The position numbers were made by a program, and so were the translations under genes. From a virus (Duplodnaviria > Caudoviricetes): a DNA stretch of 59,636 nucleotides. Shown here piece after piece: positions 1-55,604 of this stretch (its first letter is position 1; each line of letters begins with the position of its first letter). Location of the stretch: IMG/VR virus record IMGVR_UViG_3300011116_000547, positions 1-59,636 of that record; one strand, written 5' to 3'. Below the pieces are notes generated by a model. The model saw only the letters and a list, made by a program, of their open reading frames with translations. It was not told the DNA's origin and made no database searches.

Positions 1-127
1 TTAAACAAAAATAAAAAATTTATTTATGGAGAATATCTATTCACAATTGATTGGGCTCATCCAGAACCTAACATCATCGATACTGAACATTCTGAAATTC
101 CCGATCAGCATAAGTGTGCTCATGTAT
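1..127 (+). repeat. Terminal direct repeat, left copy (probable assembler k-mer overlap)
   Basis: ttaaacaaaa...catgtat is identical to 59510-59636 and lies inside a coding frame. Confidence 0.95.
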
Positions 128-3383: not shown

Positions 3384-3950
3384 ATGATTAGAGGAGATAG
3401 TAAAGATTATAATTTATTAGATAATTGGGTTAGAGGATTAAAAGTAAACTCTAAAGATATATTATCTTGTGAAATCGGTGTTAGAGAAGGACTAGGATCC
3501 AAGATCATTATGGATGGTATCAAGGCCAATGGACCACGGACCTACATGCACATTGGAATTGATCCGTATGGTAATTTAAAATATCAACATTACGACAACT
3601 CTCCATCTTACACTGCAGATTATACTAATGAAATGCGATTACAACTTGAGAAAGATTTATCAGAGTATAAAGAATTTAAATTGTTTCATATGACTGATAA
3701 AGAATTTATGCGCCGTTATCCTGAATATGGACCATTTAACTTTGTACATTTTGATGGACCTCATATGACAAGAGATGTTGCAGATGAAGCAATGTTCTTT
3801 GCGCAAAGAAGTATAATTGGAACTAGATTTGTATTTGATGATTATAAAAATTTTCAAATGTCATTAATACAACAGATGTGTTCTTGGTATGGTTTTCAAG
3901 GAATAGATAAAGGAGATAATAAAATATGCCTAGAGAAACAGACACCATAA
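3384..3950 (+). CDS. Class I SAM-dependent methyltransferase (Methyltransf_24-like)
   Basis: CEIGVREGLGS, GIDPY, FVHFDGPH, VFDD motifs. Confidence 0.8.
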   Translation: MIRGDSKDYNLLDNWVRGLKVNSKDILSCEIGVREGLGSKIIMDGIKANGPRTYMHIGIDPYGNLKYQHYDNSPSYTADYTNEMRLQLEKDLSEYKEFKLFHMTDKEFMRRYPEYGPFNFVHFDGPHMTRDVADEAMFFAQRSIIGTRFVFDDYKNFQMSLIQQMCSWYGFQGIDKGDNKICLEKQTP

Positions 3951-20353: not shown

Positions 20354-20605
20354 ATGGATGCAGTCACGTTTTTAAGTAAATTACAGAAGTTTATTAGGGA
20401 TCAATACCAAGGCATTGGTGATTCTATGATATCTGGTAATGTTGACAGTATGGAAAAATACAAGTATATGCAAGGACAGGCAAATGCCTACCAAACAGTA
20501 ATTCAGGAAATCTCTAACCTGCTAAATGAAGGAGCAAAAAAAGATGATAAAGGAAACGTTATCGACCTCGGAAAAGGAAGTTCCAAAGATAAACCTAGGT
20601 CTTGA
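20354..20605 (+). CDS. Conserved hypothetical protein preceding GroES
   Basis: AAGGAG RBS; SG.VDSMEKYKYMQG. Confidence 0.75.
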   Translation: MDAVTFLSKLQKFIRDQYQGIGDSMISGNVDSMEKYKYMQGQANAYQTVIQEISNLLNEGAKKDDKGNVIDLGKGSSKDKPRS

Positions 20606-21011
20606 AGAAAAGTATAAGGAACAAAAAGTAGTAGAAGATAAAACAGTAAGAGCAGAAAATATTACTGAATCTTTAATTGATAGTTTACCTCAACCGTCTG
20701 GTTGGAGACTATTAGTTTTACCATTTACACCTAAAGATAAAACTTCAGGTGGATTAATCATATCACAAGAATCTTTAGACAAAGCACGAATCGCAACTAA
20801 TTGCGGTTATGTTTTAAAGATTGGACCATTAGCTTATTTGGATAAAGAAAAATATCCAACAGGCCCATGGTGCAAGGAAAAAGATTGGGTGATCTTTGCC
20901 AGATACGCTGGTTCAAGACTTCCAATCGAAGGCGGTGAAGTTCGTCTATTAAATGACGATGAAGTCTTAGGGACAATTAAAAATCCTGAAGATGTACTTC
21001 ACTATATATAA
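20544..21011 (+). CDS. groES: GroES-like co-chaperonin with N-terminal extension
   Basis: LPQPSGWRLLV..TSGGLII..VLKIGP..DWVIFARYAG..LLNDDEVLG. Confidence 0.85.
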   Translation: MIKETLSTSEKEVPKINLGLEEKYKEQKVVEDKTVRAENITESLIDSLPQPSGWRLLVLPFTPKDKTSGGLIISQESLDKARIATNCGYVLKIGPLAYLDKEKYPTGPWCKEKDWVIFARYAGSRLPIEGGEVRLLNDDEVLGTIKNPEDVLHYI

Positions 21012-21027
21012 ACCATAGGAGAAAACT

Positions 21028-22038
21028 ATGCCAGAAGACAAAAACGCAAAGACTGTTGACATAGATACATCAGGTCCAGGAGCCGAGGTCGAATTAGACG
21101 TAAAGCAACCTGAATCAAACGAGATAGAGGTATCAAATGAAAAGGACAACGTTAAGTCCATTGACACAGTTGCGGAATCTAATGAGCAACCTGTTGTTAA
21201 GGCAGATAAACAAGAAACAGAAAACAAGGACCAAGGAACAGAAATAGCGTCCGAAGATACAGATAACAAGAAAGAATTAGAAGACTATAGTGAAGGTGTT
21301 AAAAAGAGAATTGCAAAATTAACCAAGAAAATGCGTGAAGCTGAAAGACAGCGTGAAGCTGCCATTGAGTATGCACGTAAAATTCAGGTTGAAAAAGATT
21401 CTCTAGCTGGAAGACTTACCAAATTAGATACAGGTTATGTATCTGAAATGGAAAGAAGAATTAAATCATCCATGGAATCAGCTGCTGCTAAATTAGCACA
21501 AGCTAGAGTTGATGGGGATTTAAAAGCTGAAATCGCCGCACAAACTGAAATATCTAAATTAGGATATGAAGAAGCAAGACTTCTTGATCTTAAATCTAGA
21601 CAATCAGAAGCAAAGGAAGTTGAACCAAAAATTCAACTAAATCAACAACAAGCTGTTCAACAAGAACAACCTATAACTCCAGACCCTAAAGCTCAAAATT
21701 GGGCTCAAAAAAATACGTGGTTTGGACAAGATGAGGCAATGACGTACACAGCCTTTGGATTACACAAAAAACTTGTGGAAGAAGAAGGATATGATGCTCA
21801 AAGTGACGAATATTATGCAGAAATTGATAAAAGAATAAGACTTGAATTTCCGCATAAATTTGCTACAACATCACAAACGATAACTGCAAAACCAGTTCAA
21901 AATGTAGCTTCGGCTAATAGAAGTGGAAAAAACAGTAATCGCAAAACTGTGAGACTCACGCCTTCTCAAGTAGCTATTGCTAAAAAATTAGGTGTGCCAC
22001 TTGAAGAATATGCGAAACATATAATCACGAAGGAGTAA
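21028..22038 (+). CDS. Capsid scaffolding protein
   Basis: Acidic N-terminus, coiled coil, C-terminal LTPSQVAIAKKLGVPLEEYAK; upstream of MCP. Confidence 0.75.
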   Translation: MPEDKNAKTVDIDTSGPGAEVELDVKQPESNEIEVSNEKDNVKSIDTVAESNEQPVVKADKQETENKDQGTEIASEDTDNKKELEDYSEGVKKRIAKLTKKMREAERQREAAIEYARKIQVEKDSLAGRLTKLDTGYVSEMERRIKSSMESAAAKLAQARVDGDLKAEIAAQTEISKLGYEEARLLDLKSRQSEAKEVEPKIQLNQQQAVQQEQPITPDPKAQNWAQKNTWFGQDEAMTYTAFGLHKKLVEEEGYDAQSDEYYAEIDKRIRLEFPHKFATTSQTITAKPVQNVASANRSGKNSNRKTVRLTPSQVAIAKKLGVPLEEYAKHIITKE

Positions 22039-22509
22039 ATGCATATGGAAAAAAACAAAAATATTAAGACCCCTCGTGCGAGCCAAACTAGGACTACTGA
22101 AAAGAGACCTACAACTTGGACTCCACCGTCATCTTTAGATGCACCGCCAGCACCAGATGGTTTTAGACATAGATGGATTCGTACTGAAGTTTTAGGCTTC
22201 GACGATACCAAAAATATGACTGGTAAAATGAGATCAGGATGGGAGCTTGTAAGAGCTGACGAATATCCTGGATCCATTTACCCTGAAATCAAAGATGGTA
22301 AATATGCGGGTGTTATCGGAGTTGGTGGCCTTGTGTTGGCAAGGATACCGGAAGAGATCGCAAAATCTCGTGAAGCTTACTTTAGGAAACAAATAGAAGC
22401 TCGTGAGGAAGCAATTGAAAACGATCTTTATAAGGATCAACACAAAAGTATGCCTATCAATAGTGAGAGGCAGACTCGTGTAACTTTTGGTGGTACGAAC
22501 AAAAAGTAA
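22039..22509 (+). CDS. Conserved head-module protein
   Basis: WTPPSSLDAP..GFRHRWIR..GWELV..GGLVLARIP. Confidence 0.75.
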   Translation: MHMEKNKNIKTPRASQTRTTEKRPTTWTPPSSLDAPPAPDGFRHRWIRTEVLGFDDTKNMTGKMRSGWELVRADEYPGSIYPEIKDGKYAGVIGVGGLVLARIPEEIAKSREAYFRKQIEAREEAIENDLYKDQHKSMPINSERQTRVTFGGTNKK

Positions 22510-22560
22510 TTTTTTGGCAATACCAACGAAGTAAAAATAAACTTAAACAAGGAAAAAACT

Positions 22561-23130
22561 ATGGCTAATAGAAGCTCAGTAGGCTTCGGTCTTAGACCGA
22601 TTGGCAAAGTTGGTCAAAATAGAGACGCCCAAGGTTTAACTGAATACCTAGTAAGTGATAGTCCAACTATCATTTATTTTAACGATGCTGTAAAAGCTAC
22701 AAACGAAGGAACAATCGCTGTAGCTGGTGGAACAGATAAGTTATTAGGATCACTAAACGGTGCGTTCTATACTGACCCAACAACTCAAAAACCGACATGG
22801 AGGAATTATGTACCTTCGGTTGCAGCGACAGATATCGTTGCATTCGTAAGTGATGATCCTTATGAAAGATTTGAGATCAGATCAAATAACACAGGCGCTT
22901 CAGCAACTAGCGATATCTTCAACAATGCAGATATCACTTATTTAGCTGGGGACTCAGCAAACTACGTATCAAGAAGCAGATTGAATGATGCTACTTTAAG
23001 CACAAATTCAGCTCAACTTCAGATACTTGGTTCAACAAAAGATACTGGTGACAATAATATCACTCAATCACACGTTGTGTGGGTTGTGAGAATTAATGAA
23101 CATCAGTTAACATCTACAACAGGAGTATAA
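22561..23130 (+). CDS. Capsid decoration/cement-type protein
   Basis: MAN..FGLRP; beta-rich; immediately upstream of MCP. Confidence 0.65.
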   Translation: MANRSSVGFGLRPIGKVGQNRDAQGLTEYLVSDSPTIIYFNDAVKATNEGTIAVAGGTDKLLGSLNGAFYTDPTTQKPTWRNYVPSVAATDIVAFVSDDPYERFEIRSNNTGASATSDIFNNADITYLAGDSANYVSRSRLNDATLSTNSAQLQILGSTKDTGDNNITQSHVVWVVRINEHQLTSTTGV

Positions 23131-23134
23131 GAAT

Positions 23135-24040
23135 ATGGCTATCTCAAGAGGACAACTAGTTAAAGAACTAGAACCAGGATTGAATGCTTTATTCGGCCTG
23201 GAGTACAAACGTTATGAAAATCAACATCTAGAAATCTTTGATGTAGAAACTTCTGACAGAGCTTTTGAAGAAGAAGTAATGTTATCAGGTTTCGCAAATG
23301 CTCAAATTAAACCAGAAGGTTCTGGCGTTACATTTGACAATGCTCAAGAAACATTCACAGCTAGATACACTCATAACACTATAGCACTTGCTTTCTCAAT
23401 CACTGAAGAAGCGATTGAAGACAACTTGTATGACAGACTTGCATCTCGTTATACAAAAGCATTAGCAAGATCTATGGCAAACACTAAGCAGGTAACGGCT
23501 GCTAACGTATTAAACAATGCGTTTTCAAGCTCTTATCCAGGTGGAGATGGTCAACCTTTATTAGACCAAGCTCACCCTACTATTGCTGGTTCATTTAGAA
23601 ATGAACTTGCAACTGCTGCTGACTTAAACGAAACTTCATTAGAACAGTCATTGATTGATATCAATGCGTTTACTGATGAACGTGGTTTAAAGATTGCTGC
23701 AAGAGGTGTTAAATTAATTATTCCAAGTGAATTACAATTCACAGCGGAAAGATTAATGGCAACTCAAGGTAGAACTGGTACTGCTAATAACGATATCAAT
23801 GCAATCAAATCTATGGGAATGATTCCACAAGGTTATGTGGTTAACAATTTCTTAACTGATTCTGATGCATTCTTTATCAAAACTGACGTTCCAAACGGTA
23901 TGAAGATGTTCGTAAGAGCAGCTATCAAAACGTCTATGGAAGGTGATTTTGATACTGGTAACGTTAGATACAAAGCTAGAGAAAGATACAGCTTCGGCTG
24001 GTCTGACCCTAGAGGTTTGTTTGGCTCACCAGGTGCTTAA
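23135..24040 (+). CDS. Major capsid protein (Mu gpT-like family)
   Basis: MAISRGQLVKELEPGLNALFGLEY..ITEEAIEDNLY..RERYSFGWSDPRG; biased high-expression codons. Confidence 0.9.
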   Translation: MAISRGQLVKELEPGLNALFGLEYKRYENQHLEIFDVETSDRAFEEEVMLSGFANAQIKPEGSGVTFDNAQETFTARYTHNTIALAFSITEEAIEDNLYDRLASRYTKALARSMANTKQVTAANVLNNAFSSSYPGGDGQPLLDQAHPTIAGSFRNELATAADLNETSLEQSLIDINAFTDERGLKIAARGVKLIIPSELQFTAERLMATQGRTGTANNDINAIKSMGMIPQGYVVNNFLTDSDAFFIKTDVPNGMKMFVRAAIKTSMEGDFDTGNVRYKARERYSFGWSDPRGLFGSPGA

Positions 24041-24058
24041 TATATAAGCATTTTTTAT

Positions 24059-24089
24059 TTAATGGGGTGGGTATATCTCACCCCATTAA
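24059..24089 (+). terminator. Stem-loop after MCP
   Basis: TTAATGGGGTG...CACCCCATTAA; no strong U-tract downstream. Confidence 0.6.
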
Positions 24090-24109
24090 TGTGTTAGAAA
24101 GAATGAATT

Positions 24110-24352
24110 ATGACAAAACTGTTTCAAGTAAAGATTAGAGCTTATGGTCACATGGCTGATTTTAAGATTGAAGCAGAAGATAGTGCAGAAAGTATAGAGA
24201 GAGCTATCCTTGACAAAATAGGAAAAAAAGGTATATTACTAAAAGACAGCATGAGATCCTTTGCTAAGGATAAATGCTGGATAACCTATGAGGAGGTTGT
24301 AGATGATATCAGTTCAAGACCTTTACAAGAAGAAAAGGTCATTAGAACTTGA
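24110..24352 (+). CDS. Hypothetical protein
   Basis: AGAAAG RBS. Confidence 0.65.
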   Translation: MTKLFQVKIRAYGHMADFKIEAEDSAESIERAILDKIGKKGILLKDSMRSFAKDKCWITYEEVVDDISSRPLQEEKVIRT

Positions 24353-24518
24353 TTGGGAGCAACACTACATTCAAGAGGGTAAATACACTCTTGATATGGT
24401 TAAGATTGACGAAAAGATAAAAGACGTCATTAACCAGATTAAAATGTCTGAAGCAGAAATTGCTCACAGACAAATTAAAGTAGAATTAGCTGCTCCTGAA
24501 TTTTCTGTAGCTAGCTAA
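24303..24518 (+). CDS. Hypothetical coiled-coil protein
   Basis: GGAGG RBS. Confidence 0.7.
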   Translation: MISVQDLYKKKRSLELDWEQHYIQEGKYTLDMVKIDEKIKDVINQIKMSEAEIAHRQIKVELAAPEFSVAS

Positions 24519-24600
24519 AACTAGCTATTTATATCCGAAAAGTAGATTTTCGATGCAGGTACCCCTTGCGCTATTCAATAAATTAAGTTATATTTTAATT

Positions 24601-24672
24601 ACTATACACTAACTTTCTAATATCGACGCAGTATAGTCGACAGCCTAGAGACGATATTGGAATAACTAGGAG
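24601..24672 (+). ncRNA. Candidate pseudoknotted cis-regulatory RNA overlapping the RBS of the next gene
   Basis: 11-bp stem 24615-24625/24652-24662; loop GTATAGT complementary to ACTATAC (24601-24607); loop CCTAG complementary to CTAGG (24666-24670). Confidence 0.6.
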
Positions 24673-24681
24673 AATAAACTT

Positions 24682-25152
24682 ATGGCAAATACAACTTTTT
24701 CTGGCCCAATTAGAGCTGGAAATATTTTTGATACAACAGGAACTACACTTGGAACAAACGTTAAAAACGTTGGACCAGTTGTATTAACTCAATCATCAAC
24801 TGTAGCATTAACACATGCAACAACAACTGCTACTGCACTTGGAATTATAATTCCTGCAAACAGTCAAATCATTAGTGTGTCAATTCAAGTAGAATCACTT
24901 TTTACTGCTTCTAACACAACTACAATTGCTGTTGGTAAAAGTTCAGCGAGTGCTACAAACTTAGCTGCAGCAACTGCTGTATCAGCAACTGCAACTGGAG
25001 CTTCAATGTTACCAGCAAGCGCAGGTGCATGGAGAACTATTGGTACTTCTGATGTTGAATTATATGGAATAACAGTTGCTAACTCTGCAACAGCAGGTAA
25101 AGCAAGAATTGTTGTAACTTATAGTCAAAACGCAGCATTAGCGGCACTATAA
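24682..25152 (+). CDS. Virion structural protein (decoration/spike-like)
   Basis: MANTTFSGPI..IPANSQII..AGKARIVVTY; Ala/Thr-rich. Confidence 0.75.
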   Translation: MANTTFSGPIRAGNIFDTTGTTLGTNVKNVGPVVLTQSSTVALTHATTTATALGIIIPANSQIISVSIQVESLFTASNTTTIAVGKSSASATNLAAATAVSATATGASMLPASAGAWRTIGTSDVELYGITVANSATAGKARIVVTYSQNAALAAL

Positions 25153-25161
25153 TAAATTAAT

Positions 25162-25187
25162 TTAAGGAGCTCGAAAGGGCTCCTTAA
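25162..25187 (+). terminator. GAAA-tetraloop hairpin
   Basis: TTAAGGAGCTC-GAAA-GGGCTCCTTAA. Confidence 0.55.
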
Positions 25188-25202
25188 TACAAGGAGAAAA
25201 AA

Positions 25203-25523
25203 ATGAGTTTTAAAAGTGATATACAAGCTACAAGATCAACAGCTGCTGCAGGAGCTACTGCAATTATTTCAGGGCCAATTCGTTTAAGAGGAATTATCAT
25301 GGCTTCTGATGGTGGTGGACTTGGTGCATTAGAATTAACTACAACTTCTAATTCAGGTTCAACTTTATTTTATGGTGATGTTCCAAGCGGTGATGTTATT
25401 AATTTTAGTTTTCCTGAAGATGGAATTTTATTTCCAAAAGGAATTTTTTGTAAAACAAAAACTAATATTGCAGCTTATACATTATTAACAGATAAATATT
25501 CTGGACCTGGGTTAACAGCGTAG
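25203..25523 (+). CDS. Virion structural protein
   Basis: RLRGI..FPEDGILF; AAGGAG RBS. Confidence 0.7.
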   Translation: MSFKSDIQATRSTAAAGATAIISGPIRLRGIIMASDGGGLGALELTTTSNSGSTLFYGDVPSGDVINFSFPEDGILFPKGIFCKTKTNIAAYTLLTDKYSGPGLTA

Positions 25524-25533
25524 GAGAAGCTAA

Positions 25534-26496
25534 ATGGCTAACACTACTTCTGGAACTACAACTTTTGAAAAAACCTTTTATATAGATAAAATTATAGAAG
25601 AGGCTTACGAAAGAATTGGTATGTCTGCGCCAAGAACGGGACAAGATTTAGAATCAACAAGACGATCTCTAAATATAATGTTCCAAGAGTGGTCAAACAG
25701 AGGTCTTCATTATTGGGAAGTAGCAAGTAATACTATTTCCATGGTCAATGGTCAAAGTACCTATACAATTTATAGATCAGCATCAGATGGTACTTCTGAT
25801 GGTACTTTAAGTTATTTAAATGGTGGAATTGATGCATCTCAAACTACAATTACATTAGATTCAGTTTGGCAATTTCCTGAAACTGGAACTTTATTAATTG
25901 GATCTGAACAAATAAATTATACAGGAACAGATACTAATTCTATGACTATTACAGGATGCACTCGTGGTGCAAATGGCACAACTGCTGCAATCCATGCAGA
26001 TAATACTGCAGTTTACGATTATAATTCTATTACTTATGGACCTGATGATATTTTAGAAATGGTTTATAGAAATACAGAACAAGTTCCTGTAGTAGATTTT
26101 CCACTTACAAAAATTAACAGATCCCAATACAGCGGATTATCTTCTAAATATTCTACAGGTCAACCTACACAATATTATGTGCAAAGATTTATAGATAAAA
26201 TTACAATTACCTTATATTTAACTCCAGGTACAGATCAGGTAAATAATGTCATTCAATATTACTATGCTAAAAGAATTCAAGATGTTGGAGCTTATACAAA
26301 TGCAACAGATGTTCCATATAGATTTGTTCCGTGCATGTGCGCAGGACTTGCTTATTATGTATCATTAAAACTTGCTCCACAAAGAACACAAGAGTTAAGA
26401 TTATTATACGAAGATGAATTAAAAAGAGCATTAGAACAAGATGGCTCTTCTTCTAGTTCATTTATAACACCAAAAACTTATTATCCAAATGTCTAA
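25534..26496 (+). CDS. Head-tail adaptor/tail tubular-like protein with inserted beta domain
   Basis: IIEEAYERIG..RSLN..EW.NRG, GQPTQYY, VPYRF..GLAYY; insert LNGGIDASQTTI..RGANGTTAAIH. Confidence 0.72.
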   Translation: MANTTSGTTTFEKTFYIDKIIEEAYERIGMSAPRTGQDLESTRRSLNIMFQEWSNRGLHYWEVASNTISMVNGQSTYTIYRSASDGTSDGTLSYLNGGIDASQTTITLDSVWQFPETGTLLIGSEQINYTGTDTNSMTITGCTRGANGTTAAIHADNTAVYDYNSITYGPDDILEMVYRNTEQVPVVDFPLTKINRSQYSGLSSKYSTGQPTQYYVQRFIDKITITLYLTPGTDQVNNVIQYYYAKRIQDVGAYTNATDVPYRFVPCMCAGLAYYVSLKLAPQRTQELRLLYEDELKRALEQDGSSSSSFITPKTYYPNV

Positions 26497-27070
26497 AAAC
26501 TCAAGAGGAAAATATTCATATATGATTTCTGACCGATCAGGTCAAAGATTTCCATATCAAGAAATGGTGCAAGAATGGAATGGATCATGGGTACATATTT
26601 CTGAATATGAACCAAAACAACCACAACTTGAACCAAAACCAACAACAGCAGATCCACAAGGATTAAGATATGCTCATCCTGATAGAATAGAACCTCCTGT
26701 AATTATAGAGTTAACTCCAAATCCATTTACAACAATTAAATATGCAGGAAATACTTACATCAATGTGTTTTCACAAAATCATGGAAGACAAACAGGTAAT
26801 GTTGTTAGATTTAGAGGACCACCACAAGTTAATACTGTAGGAATTCCTTCAAGAGAAGATTCATTTGATGATGTTCCACATTTTGATAACGTCACAGATA
26901 TCTCAAATGCAAATGGTTTTACAATTACAGTTGGTAAAATAGATTCAAGTGGTTTAGTAAGTGATCCATTGAATTATTTTTATTTCTTAAGTACAAGTAC
27001 AGCAACAACAGGAAATATTTCTGGTGGTGGAGCACAATGTTCTGCAGGTCCAGTAACTTTACAGGCTTAA
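26489..27070 (+). CDS. Virion protein
   Basis: ISDRSGQRFPY..EWNG..YEPKQPQL; C-terminal HG..G..VRF beta domain. Confidence 0.7.
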   Translation: MSKNSRGKYSYMISDRSGQRFPYQEMVQEWNGSWVHISEYEPKQPQLEPKPTTADPQGLRYAHPDRIEPPVIIELTPNPFTTIKYAGNTYINVFSQNHGRQTGNVVRFRGPPQVNTVGIPSREDSFDDVPHFDNVTDISNANGFTITVGKIDSSGLVSDPLNYFYFLSTSTATTGNISGGGAQCSAGPVTLQA

Positions 27071-38787: not shown

Positions 38788-38982
38788 ATGGATAAGAAAG
38801 AATATCATATAGATACAGAAACTGTTACAGTAATAAAGAATAAGAAAACAGGATATGTTTATAAAGATGAAGAAGAACTTAAAGCTGCAAACGTTGACCC
38901 TAATGATATTAGTCGTGATGTTGTAGTAAGAGTAACTAATAAAGGACTAGAATTGTTTAAGAAATTCATGAATGATAAATGA
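38788..38982 (+). CDS. Conserved hypothetical protein
   Basis: IKNKKTGYVYKDEEE. Confidence 0.68.
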   Translation: MDKKEYHIDTETVTVIKNKKTGYVYKDEEELKAANVDPNDISRDVVVRVTNKGLELFKKFMNDK

Positions 38983-39911
38983 AACCTAGAGGTGGAACCG
39001 AATTACAATTTGAATTTTTAGAAAAACATGTATCTAAAGAATTATTAGATCAGGTACAGATTTGTACATCTGTTCCAGGTAAAGTTCCATTACATCCAAC
39101 TAAATTAAATATCCTTTGGCAAAAAAATTCATATGATCAACCAAATCTTGCGCCTTGGTTCAAGGACAAATCTAATCATGATAAATACGATTGGTATGTA
39201 TTTAACTCTCATTGGAACTATGAAAAGTTTAGATATTACTTTGATATTCCAACACATAAATCTATTGTCATTAAAAATGGGGTAGTGCCAATTGTACCAA
39301 GAACAAGACATGTTAAAGGTGAACCTATTAAATTAATATTTCATCCAACACCATGGAGAGGATTAAATGTAATATTAGCTGCAATGCAATTAGTTAAAAA
39401 TCCACTCGTTAGTTTAGATGTATATTCTTCAACACAAGTTTATGGTGATTCATTTAAAGAAGCTAATGATGATGTATATAAAGAATTATATGACCAGGCT
39501 AAAACATTACCTAATGTAAATTACATTGGTTATAAACCTCATGAATACATAAGAGAGAATTTACATAAATATCACATCTTTGCATTTCCAAGTATTTGGG
39601 AAGAGACATTTTGTATATCGGCACTTGAAGCAATGGCCGCTGGACTTTATTGTATAACCACGGACCTTGGAGCTCTTTATGAAACAGGAGCTGAGTTTAT
39701 AACATTCATTCCTTATGAAAAATCATTTACAAGTTTAGCGCATAAATTTGCATATGCAATTGATCATGCTGCAGACACGCTAGATCATCCTGCTATCAGA
39801 CAGCATTTAGATATGCAAATAGATTACACTAATAGATTCTATAATTGGAATAAAATTGGATATGCCTGGACTAACTTTTTAAAAGGAGCTCTTAATGCAA
39901 GATTCAAGTAA
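38979..39911 (+). CDS. GT-B (family 4-like) glycosyltransferase
   Basis: GGTE, PWRGL, FPSIWEETFCISALEAMAAG. Confidence 0.88.
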   Translation: MKPRGGTELQFEFLEKHVSKELLDQVQICTSVPGKVPLHPTKLNILWQKNSYDQPNLAPWFKDKSNHDKYDWYVFNSHWNYEKFRYYFDIPTHKSIVIKNGVVPIVPRTRHVKGEPIKLIFHPTPWRGLNVILAAMQLVKNPLVSLDVYSSTQVYGDSFKEANDDVYKELYDQAKTLPNVNYIGYKPHEYIRENLHKYHIFAFPSIWEETFCISALEAMAAGLYCITTDLGALYETGAEFITFIPYEKSFTSLAHKFAYAIDHAADTLDHPAIRQHLDMQIDYTNRFYNWNKIGYAWTNFLKGALNARFK

Positions 39912-53909: not shown

Positions 53910-53931
53910 GGGGCAAGGTAATACTTGCCCC
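53910..53931 (+). terminator. Stem-loop between SSB and primase
   Basis: GGGGCAAG-GTAATA-CTTGCCCC; lacks U-tract. Confidence 0.5.
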
Positions 53932-53948
53932 AAACAACAAGGGCATTT

Positions 53949-55604
53949 ATGGAGAAAGAATTTGCTGAGATATTCAGCGGACTAAAAAGAAATTTTGGTG
54001 TTGCTTATTTAGATGAATTTACAGTTGATCCTAATACAGGAAAGAAAAAACCAAAAAAATATGGATGGTCTTTTAAAGAGATAACTGAAAAACATTATCT
54101 AGATCATTTAAATGGTGTAACTTCTATTGGTATTCAACCATGTGATGATGATGGCATGGCAAGCTTTGGGGCTATTGATATTGATGATAAAGAACATAGT
54201 TATTCAAATTTTCCATATAAAAGATATTTAGATATTATAAAAGAAAACAATCTTCCATTAATTCCAGTTAAATCAAAAAGTGGAGGACTTCATTTATATT
54301 TATTTTTAAAAGAAAAAGTAAGAGCTGTATTTTTAAGAAATTTTTTAGAAAGTTTATTGTATGTTTTAAAATTGAAACCAAGTACAGAAGTATATCCGAA
54401 ACAAACTGAACTTGGATTTGATGAAGAGAAAAAAGAATATTCAAATGGTCAATATATAAATCTTCCATACTTTAATTGTAATGAAAGAGTTGCAATTAAT
54501 TATGATGGTACTCCTTTTACCGTAGAACAATTCATTAAAGTTGTTAATCATAACAAAAAAAGTAAACAAGAATTAGAAGAGTTTTCTCTCGCCCTAGTGA
54601 AAACTGTCTTACAAGGAGGTCCAGATGAATTTAATGATGGCCCTCCTTGTCTACAGATTATGGCTAAAGAACCATTGAGTGATGCTAGAGATAGATGGTT
54701 ATATAACTACATGGTGTTTGCTAAGAAAAAGTATCCTGATAATTGGCAAGAAGTTCTTAAAGCAGCTCCACAAAAATATTTTATAAAAGACTCTAATGGT
54801 GTTGTGTTAGATCATTGGGGATCAGAGAAAAAAATAATAGATAAAATCAGATCTTGGAAAAAAGATAATACAAAAGGTTATACATGCACTCAAGAACCTA
54901 TTGTTAATTTCTGTATGAAAGTTGAATGTCTTAAAAAGAAATATGGTGTTGGATCCGACAGAAAAAAAATGTTTCCACCATTATCTAATTTAGTAAAAAT
55001 AAATTATCCAGAACCAGAATATACTTTTAATGTTGAACTTCCAGATAATAAAGGAAGTAAAGTCATTAGAGCTAAAGATATGAAACAAATTAAAGATCAA
55101 GAAGAATTACGAACATTAATAATGAAGACAGCAAATATCTATGTTGCAAAAGTAAAAGGAGATGATTTTGAAAATGTTATTGCTAAGTTACTACCTCCAG
55201 TAGAGATACATCAACCACCTAAAGGAACAACACCAGATGAATTATTACATGAATACCTGGAAGAATATCTTAATGGACCAAAAGCAAAATCATATGCTTC
55301 TTTTAAATCCGGCGCTGTATTAGTAGAAGAAGGATTTGCATATTTTAAATTTGCAAACTTTTATAACACTTTAAAAAATAAAGAATGGAAAGAAAGAAAA
55401 GAAAGAACAGCTCAAAGAATAAAAGAAAGATATAAAGCAGAATTTGGAATTAAAAAAAGATTTCCGAAATTAAATAATGAAGCTGCAAATTATGAAGCAA
55501 TAGAAGTTGTAAAAATAAATTTAAAAGCTGAAGGAAATGAACTTTTAAAAGAAATAGTTAAAACAGAATTAGTTAAGATGAAAGGAAATAAAGACGTATT
55601 CTAA
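53949..55604 (+). CDS. AEP-type primase with PriL-like Cys region
   Basis: GAIDID, SKSGGLHLY, INLPY, PPC...C..C..C. Confidence 0.8.
   Translation: MEKEFAEIFSGLKRNFGVAYLDEFTVDPNTGKKKPKKYGWSFKEITEKHYLDHLNGVTSIGIQPCDDDGMASFGAIDIDDKEHSYSNFPYKRYLDIIKENNLPLIPVKSKSGGLHLYLFLKEKVRAVFLRNFLESLLYVLKLKPSTEVYPKQTELGFDEEKKEYSNGQYINLPYFNCNERVAINYDGTPFTVEQFIKVVNHNKKSKQELEEFSLALVKTVLQGGPDEFNDGPPCLQIMAKEPLSDARDRWLYNYMVFAKKKYPDNWQEVLKAAPQKYFIKDSNGVVLDHWGSEKKIIDKIRSWKKDNTKGYTCTQEPIVNFCMKVECLKKKYGVGSDRKKMFPPLSNLVKINYPEPEYTFNVELPDNKGSKVIRAKDMKQIKDQEELRTLIMKTANIYVAKVKGDDFENVIAKLLPPVEIHQPPKGTTPDELLHEYLEEYLNGPKAKSYASFKSGAVLVEEGFAYFKFANFYNTLKNKEWKERKERTAQRIKERYKAEFGIKKRFPKLNNEAANYEAIEVVKINLKAEGNELLKEIVKTELVKMKGNKDVF

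Follow-up and report, generated by a model that had tools for sequence, protein, structure and literature searches.

Introduction

In the leaders of the E. coli alpha operon, rpsO and T4 gene 32, a pseudoknot reaches or abuts the Shine-Dalgarno (SD) sequence or the AUG. These structures act in cis, gate the access of the 30S subunit and bind a known protein (S4, S15 and gp32). The preQ1-II, SAM-II and SAM-V riboswitches are compact pseudoknots whose 3' helix takes in part of the SD, and they occur in SAR11-type, AT-rich systems. Mu-gpT-DE (RF03012) is a kind of element already known; since the motif survey of 2017 Rfam has listed it without a function. This report concerns an element with features of all these systems. 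It occupies positions 24601-24681 of the + strand of the IMG/VR virus record IMGVR_UViG_3300011116_000547, a stretch of 59,636 nucleotides that is referred to at its full length as the window. The element lies immediately upstream of a gene for a capsid cement (decoration) protein.

Comparison of many related leaders indicates that the element, in the leader of the cement gene, almost certainly folds as + strand RNA into a conserved structure whose three helices covary. Like the S4, S15 and gene 32 operators it is a leader pseudoknot placed at the translation start. It differs from them in that those bind a known protein, whereas here the cis anatomy alone is read. It is also unrelated to them in sequence and family, and it has a proposed junction of three GAC triplets and two loop-to-flank helices.

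A double pseudoknot in the leader of the cement gene

The center of the element is stem S (also P1), formed by TTCTAATATCG at 24615-24625 and CGATATTGGAA at 24652-24662. It has 11 bp including one G.U pair (T24618/G24659) and encloses a 26-nt loop (24626-24651). Two segments of this loop are complementary to the flanks. The first pseudoknot helix (PK1) pairs ACUAUAC at 24601-24607, the predicted +1 region of the transcript, with GUAUAGU at 24631-24637, which would lie in the loop of a proposed small helix P2. The second (PK2) pairs CCUAG at 24644-24648, in the loop of a proposed P3 (C24641-G24650), with CUAGG at 24666-24670. The latter arm overlaps by 3 nt the SD, AGGAG (24668-24672), of the cement gene, whose ATG is at 24682. 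The stem with its single G-U pair and 26-nt loop, the pairing of the loop with the upstream flank and the pairing that runs into the ribosome-binding site (RBS) had all been described in the initial annotation, and each is found in the sequence as described there. The palindrome GTCGAC that was also pointed out is present (24636-24641), but it is incidental; it runs from the last bases of a pseudoknot arm through the second GAC, and the type-B leaders described below lack it. The predicted topology is a kissing-hairpin-type (ABACBC) double pseudoknot with the helix order A-B-A'-C-B'-C', each helix being supported by covariation.

Folding of the single sequence is not diagnostic. RNAfold keeps stem S, and the minimum free energy is unremarkable (z = -0.80, 39 of 200 shuffles folding equally well); because this score is not significant, comparison was relied upon instead. 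The arrangement of the helices is rare by chance. The full topology (stem of at least 11 bp, PK1 of at least 7 and PK2 of at least 5) appeared in 0 of 3000 dinucleotide shuffles, and a relaxed one (at least 8, 6 and 5) in 1 of 3000. The duplex energies are -11.1 kcal/mol for S, -5.6 for PK1 and -4.7 for PK2.

Conservation and covariation

Leaders were collected by a protein-anchored scan, which yielded 80 viral loci, a second scan, which added 21 contigs, and a metagenome scan, which added another 80 loci. The combined collection holds 158 distinct leaders, which fall into type A (the window type, 49), type B (29), type C (63) and others (17). Alignment A1 contains 38 distinct window-type leaders. 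Its cells pair in 94.8% of cases, against 84.4% in shuffles (0 of 500 reach the observed value) and 18-36% with slid partners. Pairing is complete (100% of cells) over the inner 8 bp of S, and changes on both sides occur at 10 of the 11 S pairs. PK1 and PK2 are also paired in 100% of the cells and both are mostly invariant. Where they do change, the partner changes too: in PK1, A-U is replaced by G-C in Pelagibacter phage HTVC027P (L001) and C-G by U-A in L035, and in PK2, G-C is replaced by A-U in L028 and L044. A metagenome leader, L364, combines a 9-bp variant of PK1 with the PK2 double change seen in L028. The initial annotation had called for alignment of relatives' leaders and a covariation test of the three pairings, and these compensatory changes bear the pairings out. 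The S core of A1 contains 20 G.U cells and no unpaired cell, hence no A.C; this asymmetry argues that the + strand folds as RNA, rather than duplex DNA being the conserved form.

A strict core pattern matched at least 120 viral stretches, of which 80 loci were examined. The core is followed by CTAGG, an SD, an ATG and an ORF of the MAxTTFxGP type in 80/80. ACTATAC is found upstream in all 78 loci that have sufficient upstream sequence, and all 8 inner S pairs are present in 78/80. A covariance model, R1, was built on type A with the stem only. It gives 89.8 bits to the window leader and 39.6 bits to a hybrid leader, L029, and its scan finds one true copy of the element in the phage genome. A second match in the window (25143-25205, 28.4 bits) draws its score from flanks and stem only and is an ordinary hairpin behind the cement gene.

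Interchangeable leader architectures

Type-B leaders, including that of Pelagibacter phage HTVC023P, have the same strand order and junction bases as type A but entirely different arms. The PK1 arm pairs include CCUAG/CUAGG, CCGGG/CCCGG, CUGGG/CCCAG, UCGGG/CCCGA and CCCGGC/GCCGGG. The PK2 arm pairs include GUAUAG/CUAUAC, UUGCAGA/UCUGCAA, CAUACAA/UUGUAUG, ACAUGC/GCAUGU, AUAUAC/GUAUAU, ACUAGAA/UUCUAGU and CUAUGA/UCAUAG. Across the leaders, at least 10 solutions for the PK1 arms and at least 12 for the PK2 arms were counted. In 12 type-B representatives compared with 5000 flank shuffles, the exact complements give Fisher-combined p values of 5e-5 for PK1 and 1e-13 for PK2, which are not exact probabilities since the representatives share ancestry. 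The MAFFT alignment of type B (A3) is out of register at the palindromic arms, L023 and L070 being misaligned, and the sequences were parsed by anchors instead. One type-B subgroup (L054, L064, L076, L091, L094, L036 and L093) has a 5' arm that is complementary to two segments, at about -95 to -60 relative to the ATG: a nearby UCCGG, which would form a local 5' hairpin (CCGGG...UCCGG), and the loop arm CCCGG. In the group of L127, L135, L137 and L156 all three segments are changed together (CUGGG, CCAG and CCCAG). Such a two-partner arm may form alternative conformers; the change is a single event.

Simpler leaders also exist. Type D (L311, L312 and L362) has S and PK2 without PK1; its S, CCUGCCAG/CUGGCAGG, covaries with CUCGCCAG/CUGGCGAG, and its PK2 is GCACGC/GCGUGC. 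Ten minimal leaders (L010, L073, L296, L298, L020, L297, L300, L310, L349 and L360) are without pseudoknots, and their enclosing helix pairs with the AUGGG start region. Both type D and the minimal leaders keep three GAC triplets. At least four interchangeable architectures were found for the cement leader.

Cement proteins with leaders of different classes are interspersed on a quick maximum-likelihood tree (96 proteins). The starred branches force at least 10 class changes for type A, 7 for type C and 5 for type B, and sister proteins can have leaders of unlike class, as in HTVC027P (A) and HTVC023P (B) or L050 (C) and L055 (A). The classes thus substitute for one another at a single locus, which speaks for a common function. 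A promoter-plus-leader cassette seems to have been exchanged between phages independently of the coding sequence.

A proposed junction of three GAC triplets

The most conserved feature of the leaders is a triad of GAC triplets. In the window, GAC 1 (24625-24627) supplies the G that closes S, a proposed linker, A24626, and the C that opens the proposed P2; it is invariant or nearly so in A1. GAC 2 (24639-24641) supplies the G closing P2, the linker A24640 and the C opening P3, and in A1 its CGA is invariant and its C nearly so. GAC 3 (24650-24652), nearly invariant, supplies the G closing P3, the linker A24651 and the C opening the 3' strand of S. In every class GAC ranks first or second among the over-represented trinucleotides at -70 to -1, with a mean of 3.0-3.7 copies per leader against about 1.0 expected by composition. 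At least three copies are present in that interval in 46/49 type-A, 25/29 type-B, 63/63 type-C and 16/17 other leaders. Among the 57 ORF starts of the window, that of the cement gene is the only one with three or more GAC upstream.

The 26-nt loop thus appears to be the core of a three-way junction made from the three triplets. The G of GAC 1 with the C of GAC 3 would close S, the C of GAC 1 with the G of GAC 2 would close P2, and the C of GAC 2 with the G of GAC 3 would close P3. The three A residues would be one-base linkers, and the loops of P2 and P3 would make PK1 and PK2. In the window the proposed P2 has 2 bp (C24627-G24639 and G24628-C24638). Of 29 type-B leaders, 23 close S with G-C, 5 with A-U and 1 with U-A, and none leaves this pair open; the middle pair of the 3-bp P2 of type B (C-x-G/C-y-G) is U-A in 22, A-U in 4 and U.G in 3, again unpaired in 0/29. 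The base of the inner hairpin of RF03012 is the same C-A-G/C-U-G. In this model PK1 and PK2 would be loop-to-single-strand helices stacked on P2 and P3, an arrangement that the short 5' linkers make geometrically reasonable in view of what is generally known of kissing loops.

Relation to Mu-gpT-DE

The initial annotation had suggested a link to the Mu-gpT-DE motif and a covariance search of Rfam with the leader. That search returned no family; the window has 0 Rfam matches at gathering thresholds. Membership of RF03012 by score is set by a gathering threshold of 49 bits, which the window element does not reach and positive controls do (50.4-72.9 bits), and the type-B loci have no RF03012 match at E<=10. 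The leaders of orthologous genes do match. In 8 of 20 related loci scanned, all type C, the leader of the cement gene is itself an RF03012 match (50.4-72.9 bits) at -50 to +3. The type-C matches span model positions 1-53, with SD and AUG included. In the cultured roseophage CRP-902 a 72.3-bit match stands at the same position, between a 'Mu-like gpT' head gene with its terminator and the cement homologue. The suggested link is therefore real: orthologous genes carry RF03012 at this place and a GAC-triad core is common to both. The window element is not a member by score.

The likeness is both positional and structural. Both elements lie in a cement-gene leader downstream of a Mu gpT-like major capsid gene, and the window element, like Mu-gpT-DE, directly precedes the SD and AUG of a structural gene. 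Both have three GAC at matching relative places (by our own reading of the Rfam consensus, not a published definition), and in both the enclosing helix is closed by a pair between the G of GAC 1 and the C of GAC 3, here G24625-C24652. In both, the segment between GAC 2 and GAC 3 pairs with the translation start region. They differ in several respects. Stem S of the window type has 8-11 bp and does not include the SD, whereas the outer helix of RF03012, CCUG/CAGG, contains it. RF03012 has an inner hairpin between the first two GAC, where the window has a 9-nt loop that pairs with 24601-24607 (PK1). The window pseudoknot reaches the 5' edge of the SD and that of RF03012 members reaches the AUG. 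Two small ORFs separate the capsid gene of the window from the leader. In addition, Rfam types RF03012 as an sRNA or 'downstream element', while the data here argue for a 5' leader. On sequence comparison, the window element is probably a structural variant within the class of leaders catalogued in Rfam as Mu-gpT-DE.

Searches of the literature on pelagiphages, riboswitches and cement-protein translation found nothing on this element. Mu-gpT-DE is named in PMC7657543, in a passage that lists the family. The main text of the 2017 survey of Weinberg (PMC5737381) does not contain 'gpT', 'Mu-like' or 'capsid', the motif being described in its supplements, which were outside the search. In the main text of the HTVC027P transcriptome paper (PMC12753301) gp59 and gp62 are not named, the tables being in its supplements. 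By the literature searched, the double-pseudoknot architecture and the GAC-triad reading of the junction appear undescribed, with the proviso that the supplements on the 2017 motif and on CaCoFold may bear on them. The start-codon pseudoknot of RF03012 members and the assignment of the motif to the translation start of the cement gene appear undescribed as well.

The cement gene and its probable transcription unit

The gene behind the leader (24682-25152, + strand) encodes a protein of 156 aa. Pfam and PHROG searches placed this ORF in no family. A profile of 63 homologues matches the PDB entry 7eel_H, 'Cement (decoration) proteins' of cyanophage Pam1 (E 1.5e-5), and 7dn2_1, the cement protein gp15 of Helicobacter phage KHP30 (E 0.006). 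The AlphaFold2 (AF2) model is a jellyroll (pLDDT 73) with 7eel_H as the best Foldseek match (E 2e-5). The expectation that the downstream gene is capsid-associated is thus supported, and profile and Foldseek together identify it as a cement/decoration protein.

A promoter-like site, TTGCGC and TATATT with a 17-nt spacer (24566-24594, + strand), ends 6 nt 5' of the first pseudoknot arm. The pattern CTTGCRCT-N14-20-TATA occurs once in the window. Among 111 distinct type-A leaders 91 have a match to TTGNNN-16..18-TANNN[TA] upstream, and in 88 of these 91 the -10-like hexamer is exactly 6 nt from the PK1 arm. Type-B leaders have good TTGACA-17-TATAAA sites 7-11 nt 5' of the arm. The 6-nt spacing points to the PK1 arm as the first bases of the transcript, and the transcript would accordingly start there, at the predicted +1. 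The block CTCTTGCRCTCTA around the -35-like hexamer (24565-24580) also occurs once in the window, and in type-A leaders it is far more conserved than a plain sigma-70 -35 requires; a late-transcription factor of the phage may bind there. The alternative that (T)CACTATA at the PK1 arm is a T7-like promoter was rejected: no single-subunit RNA polymerase was found by Pfam among 15 large ORFs of the window, and the arm covaries with the loop.

A hairpin 3' of the cement stop codon, TTAAGGAGCTC-GAAA-GGGCTCCTTAA (25162-25187, + strand), has no clean U tract. It likely forms the 3' end of a monocistronic cement transcript. Its loop is a GAAA tetraloop; CACTATAAT precedes it, and AAGGAG and the ATG of ORF 25203 follow. 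The region (25143-25205) is probably a terminator or 3' stabiliser, not a second copy of the leader. With the promoter-like site upstream and this hairpin after the stop, the cement gene looks like a self-contained transcription unit. Metatranscriptome contigs from four RNA runs, compared over 22000-27000, take in the capsid gene, with a single X15 contig reaching from 24664 to 25043. Positions 24575-24663 are uncovered, and contigs of this kind cannot show starts, ends or levels.

Engagement of the translation start region

Each leader class engages the translation start by a different route. In type A, PK2 covers the AGG of the SD. In type B the 3' arm of PK2 runs right up to the SD (0 nt between them) in 10 of 12 representatives, and a gap of 2-3 nt separates the two in the remaining 2. 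In type C the outer helix CCUG/CAGG contains the SD, and the segment between GAC 2 and GAC 3 is complementary to the G of the AUG plus codon 2. This last pairing covaries, (UA)GCC going with ATGGC (codon 2 GCN) and ACCC with ATGGG (codon 2 GGU), in 66/66 distinct leaders. In alignment A4, which contains L018, L021, L284 and 61 other type-C loci, 35 rows have GC at this pair, 18 have CG and 11 fall under 'other'; the rows among these 11 that were checked by eye (not all, e.g. L302 and L338) are a one-column MAFFT shift of CCCAGAC. The pairing with codon 2 lies beyond the 3' end of the Rfam model, which stops at the AUG. A partner for UAGCC in the upstream sequence was sought by eye and none was found; the partner is the start-codon region. 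In the minimal leaders the 5' flank (P1) pairs with C-AUGGG in 5-8 of 9 positions in 10/10, and the SD lies in the loop of P3. That the start region is engaged in every class is the main reason for favoring control of translation initiation.

Function of the leader

The favored reading is that 24601-24681 is a structured 5' leader of a dedicated cement mRNA which probably acts in cis on translation initiation. The more specific proposal, that it controls translation by holding the SD region, is put forward with a little less assurance, as somewhat likelier than its negation. PK1 joins the 5'-most bases of the leader to the loop, and PK2 joins the loop to the 5' edge of the SD. The fold would then hold the SD region, whether constitutively or, if it is an operator, through stabilisation by a trans factor, and it would bury the 5' end of the transcript as well. 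The masking of the RBS that was originally envisaged survives in reduced form: 3 nt of the SD are base-paired in the window, but the masking is partial, the type-B arm merely abuts the SD, and one subgroup has its SD downstream. The switch that was also envisaged, setting the stoichiometry of the protein, goes further than these data, which point to no ligand or alternative expression platform.

A number of observations weigh against this reading. Masking by PK2 is weak and not universal (5 bp, about -4.7 kcal/mol). The SD itself is unpaired in type B, and in eight type-A leaders (L025, L060, L198, L229, L230, L238, L239 and L293) a separate AAGGAG stands downstream of the retained CTAGG arm. 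The high copy number in which cement proteins are required would suit an enhancer or stabiliser no less than a repressor. The P2 (2 bp) and P3 (1 bp) of type A are invariant and the junction there rests on homology, while RNAfold pairs C24627 with G24650 instead. The -35 of the window matches in only 3/6 bases, and a stricter consensus scan did not list the promoter. R1 finds type-B L003 weakly (19.8 bits, E 0.21) and found no other type-B or type-C loci, so that it could not unify the classes. RF03012 is absent from the 14 weak Rfam matches at E<=10 over 23900-25300.

The main rival, judged unlikely on balance, is that the fold is a 5'-terminal protective or insulating structure that stabilises the cement mRNA, keeps the SD free and raises output. 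Stem-loops at the 5' terminus stabilise E. coli mRNAs, and the copy number of cement proteins is about that of the major capsid protein. The PK1 arm at the predicted +1 with its spacing kept in 88/91, the gene's own promoter-like site and downstream hairpin, the single-stranded SD of type B flush against a helix, and a product needed in hundreds of copies would all suit such a role. A simple hairpin would suffice for it, however, and it leaves unexplained the GAC triad, the start-region pseudoknot and the direct pairing of SD or AUG in type-C and minimal leaders. Stabilisation is not exclusive of translational control, and the two may coexist. That the element is instead a riboswitch, in which a small molecule at the junction stabilises an SD-sequestering pseudoknot as in preQ1-II, SAM-II and SAM-V, seems quite improbable. 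The compact pseudoknot-rich fold with an SD-proximal helix and about 10 conserved unpaired or junction nucleotides resembles one, and the two alternative covarying partners of the 5' arm in the type-B subgroup hint at conformers. Yet none of the Rfam riboswitch models gives a match, even at E<=10, and the leaders exchange both helices and architecture freely, some of those without pseudoknots keeping the GACs. In addition, the regulated gene is structural and offers no metabolic logic, and the two-partner case is a single event. Neither in the window nor in the related loci was there a match to the riboswitch or self-cleaving ribozyme models of Rfam 15; the single weak riboswitch row, PreQ1 at 22.2 bits (gathering 39), lies elsewhere in L088.

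There is very little to recommend the idea that the element trims the leader, as a self-cleaving ribozyme or as a site of RNase processing, even with the junction nucleotides conserved and small pseudoknotted ribozymes common in phage and metagenome DNA. No Rfam ribozyme family matches, the element begins at the promoter-like site so that there is nothing obvious to remove, and pairing into the translation start region in all classes is a translational signature. Least credible of all is an action at the DNA level, with interleaved inverted repeats bound by a promoter regulator, or plain chance pairing. The arms are indeed inverted repeats with the palindromes CTAG and GTCGAC and adjoin a promoter-like site, but against this stand the G.U cells of the S core with zero A.C, the extensive turnover of helix sequences with complementarity kept, and the absence of the topology from all 3000 shuffles.

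If control of translation initiation does involve a trans factor, the three GACs could form an operator of rough three-fold symmetry, bound by unassembled cement protein or another capsid-assembly protein, so that assembly feeds back on synthesis. This is a speculative and rather improbable extension, drawn by analogy. HutP recognises three UAG and TRAP recognises GAG/UAG repeats, and the cement leaders, too, conserve above all else a triplet present three times; the likeness is purely one of analogy, and here the GACs are also explained structurally by the three-way junction. The scaffolding protein of P22 autoregulates post-transcriptionally, a precedent for assembly-coupled feedback on a capsid-assembly protein. 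The family of the cement protein includes one solved as a trimer (7dou, by its title), and the protein would be expected to be trimeric; its binding would lock the SD or AUG into the fold. If true, the operator would also explain Mu-gpT-DE.

The phage and the neighboring genes

The virus record is a complete genome of 59,636 bp with direct terminal repeats, and the phage is a podovirus of the HTVC023P type. Among its products are a large terminase, a portal and adaptor of the SU10 type, and a major capsid protein weakly similar to Mu gpT. The capsid gene (23135-24040) matches Pfam Mu-like_gpT (2.4e-7) and Phage_capsid_4. The two small ORFs between it and the leader lie at 24110-24518. A hairpin, AGCTAG...CTAGCT (24508-24530), overlaps the stop codon of the 71-aa ORF 24303-24518 and may serve to terminate transcription upstream of the promoter-like site of the cement gene. 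The equivalent stem differs in HTVC027P and 023Pt_psg01 (GTAGCT...AGCTAC; L001 at about 3448-3473 and L002 at about 2866-2888).

By blastn the nearest named relatives are two Pelagibacter phages, HTVC023P and HTVC027P, the latter aligning over 67% of a 4-kb query with 69.8% identity. Near-identical DNA is found mainly in freshwater, riverine, sediment and estuary (also viral) metagenome runs, the named relatives being phages of marine Pelagibacter. The window also codes for a GroES-like co-chaperonin (20526-21011), a glycosyltransferase (38979-39911) and a primase domain of the AEP-TOTE type (53925-55604).

Implications

These comparisons reinterpret Mu-gpT-DE as a leader of the cement gene. 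Together with at least three other architectures, including the double pseudoknot of the window, it belongs to a set of interchangeable 5' leaders of that gene. The class is widespread, as the viral stretches matching one strict core pattern alone indicate, and the current Rfam model misses a large share of it: types A, B and 'other' make up 95 of the 158 distinct leaders collected. The shared GAC-triad core and the engagement of SD or AUG suggest a testable function, the control of translation initiation, and cultured systems are at hand in HTVC027P and HTVC023P on Pelagibacter HTCC1062 and CRP-902 on Roseobacter.

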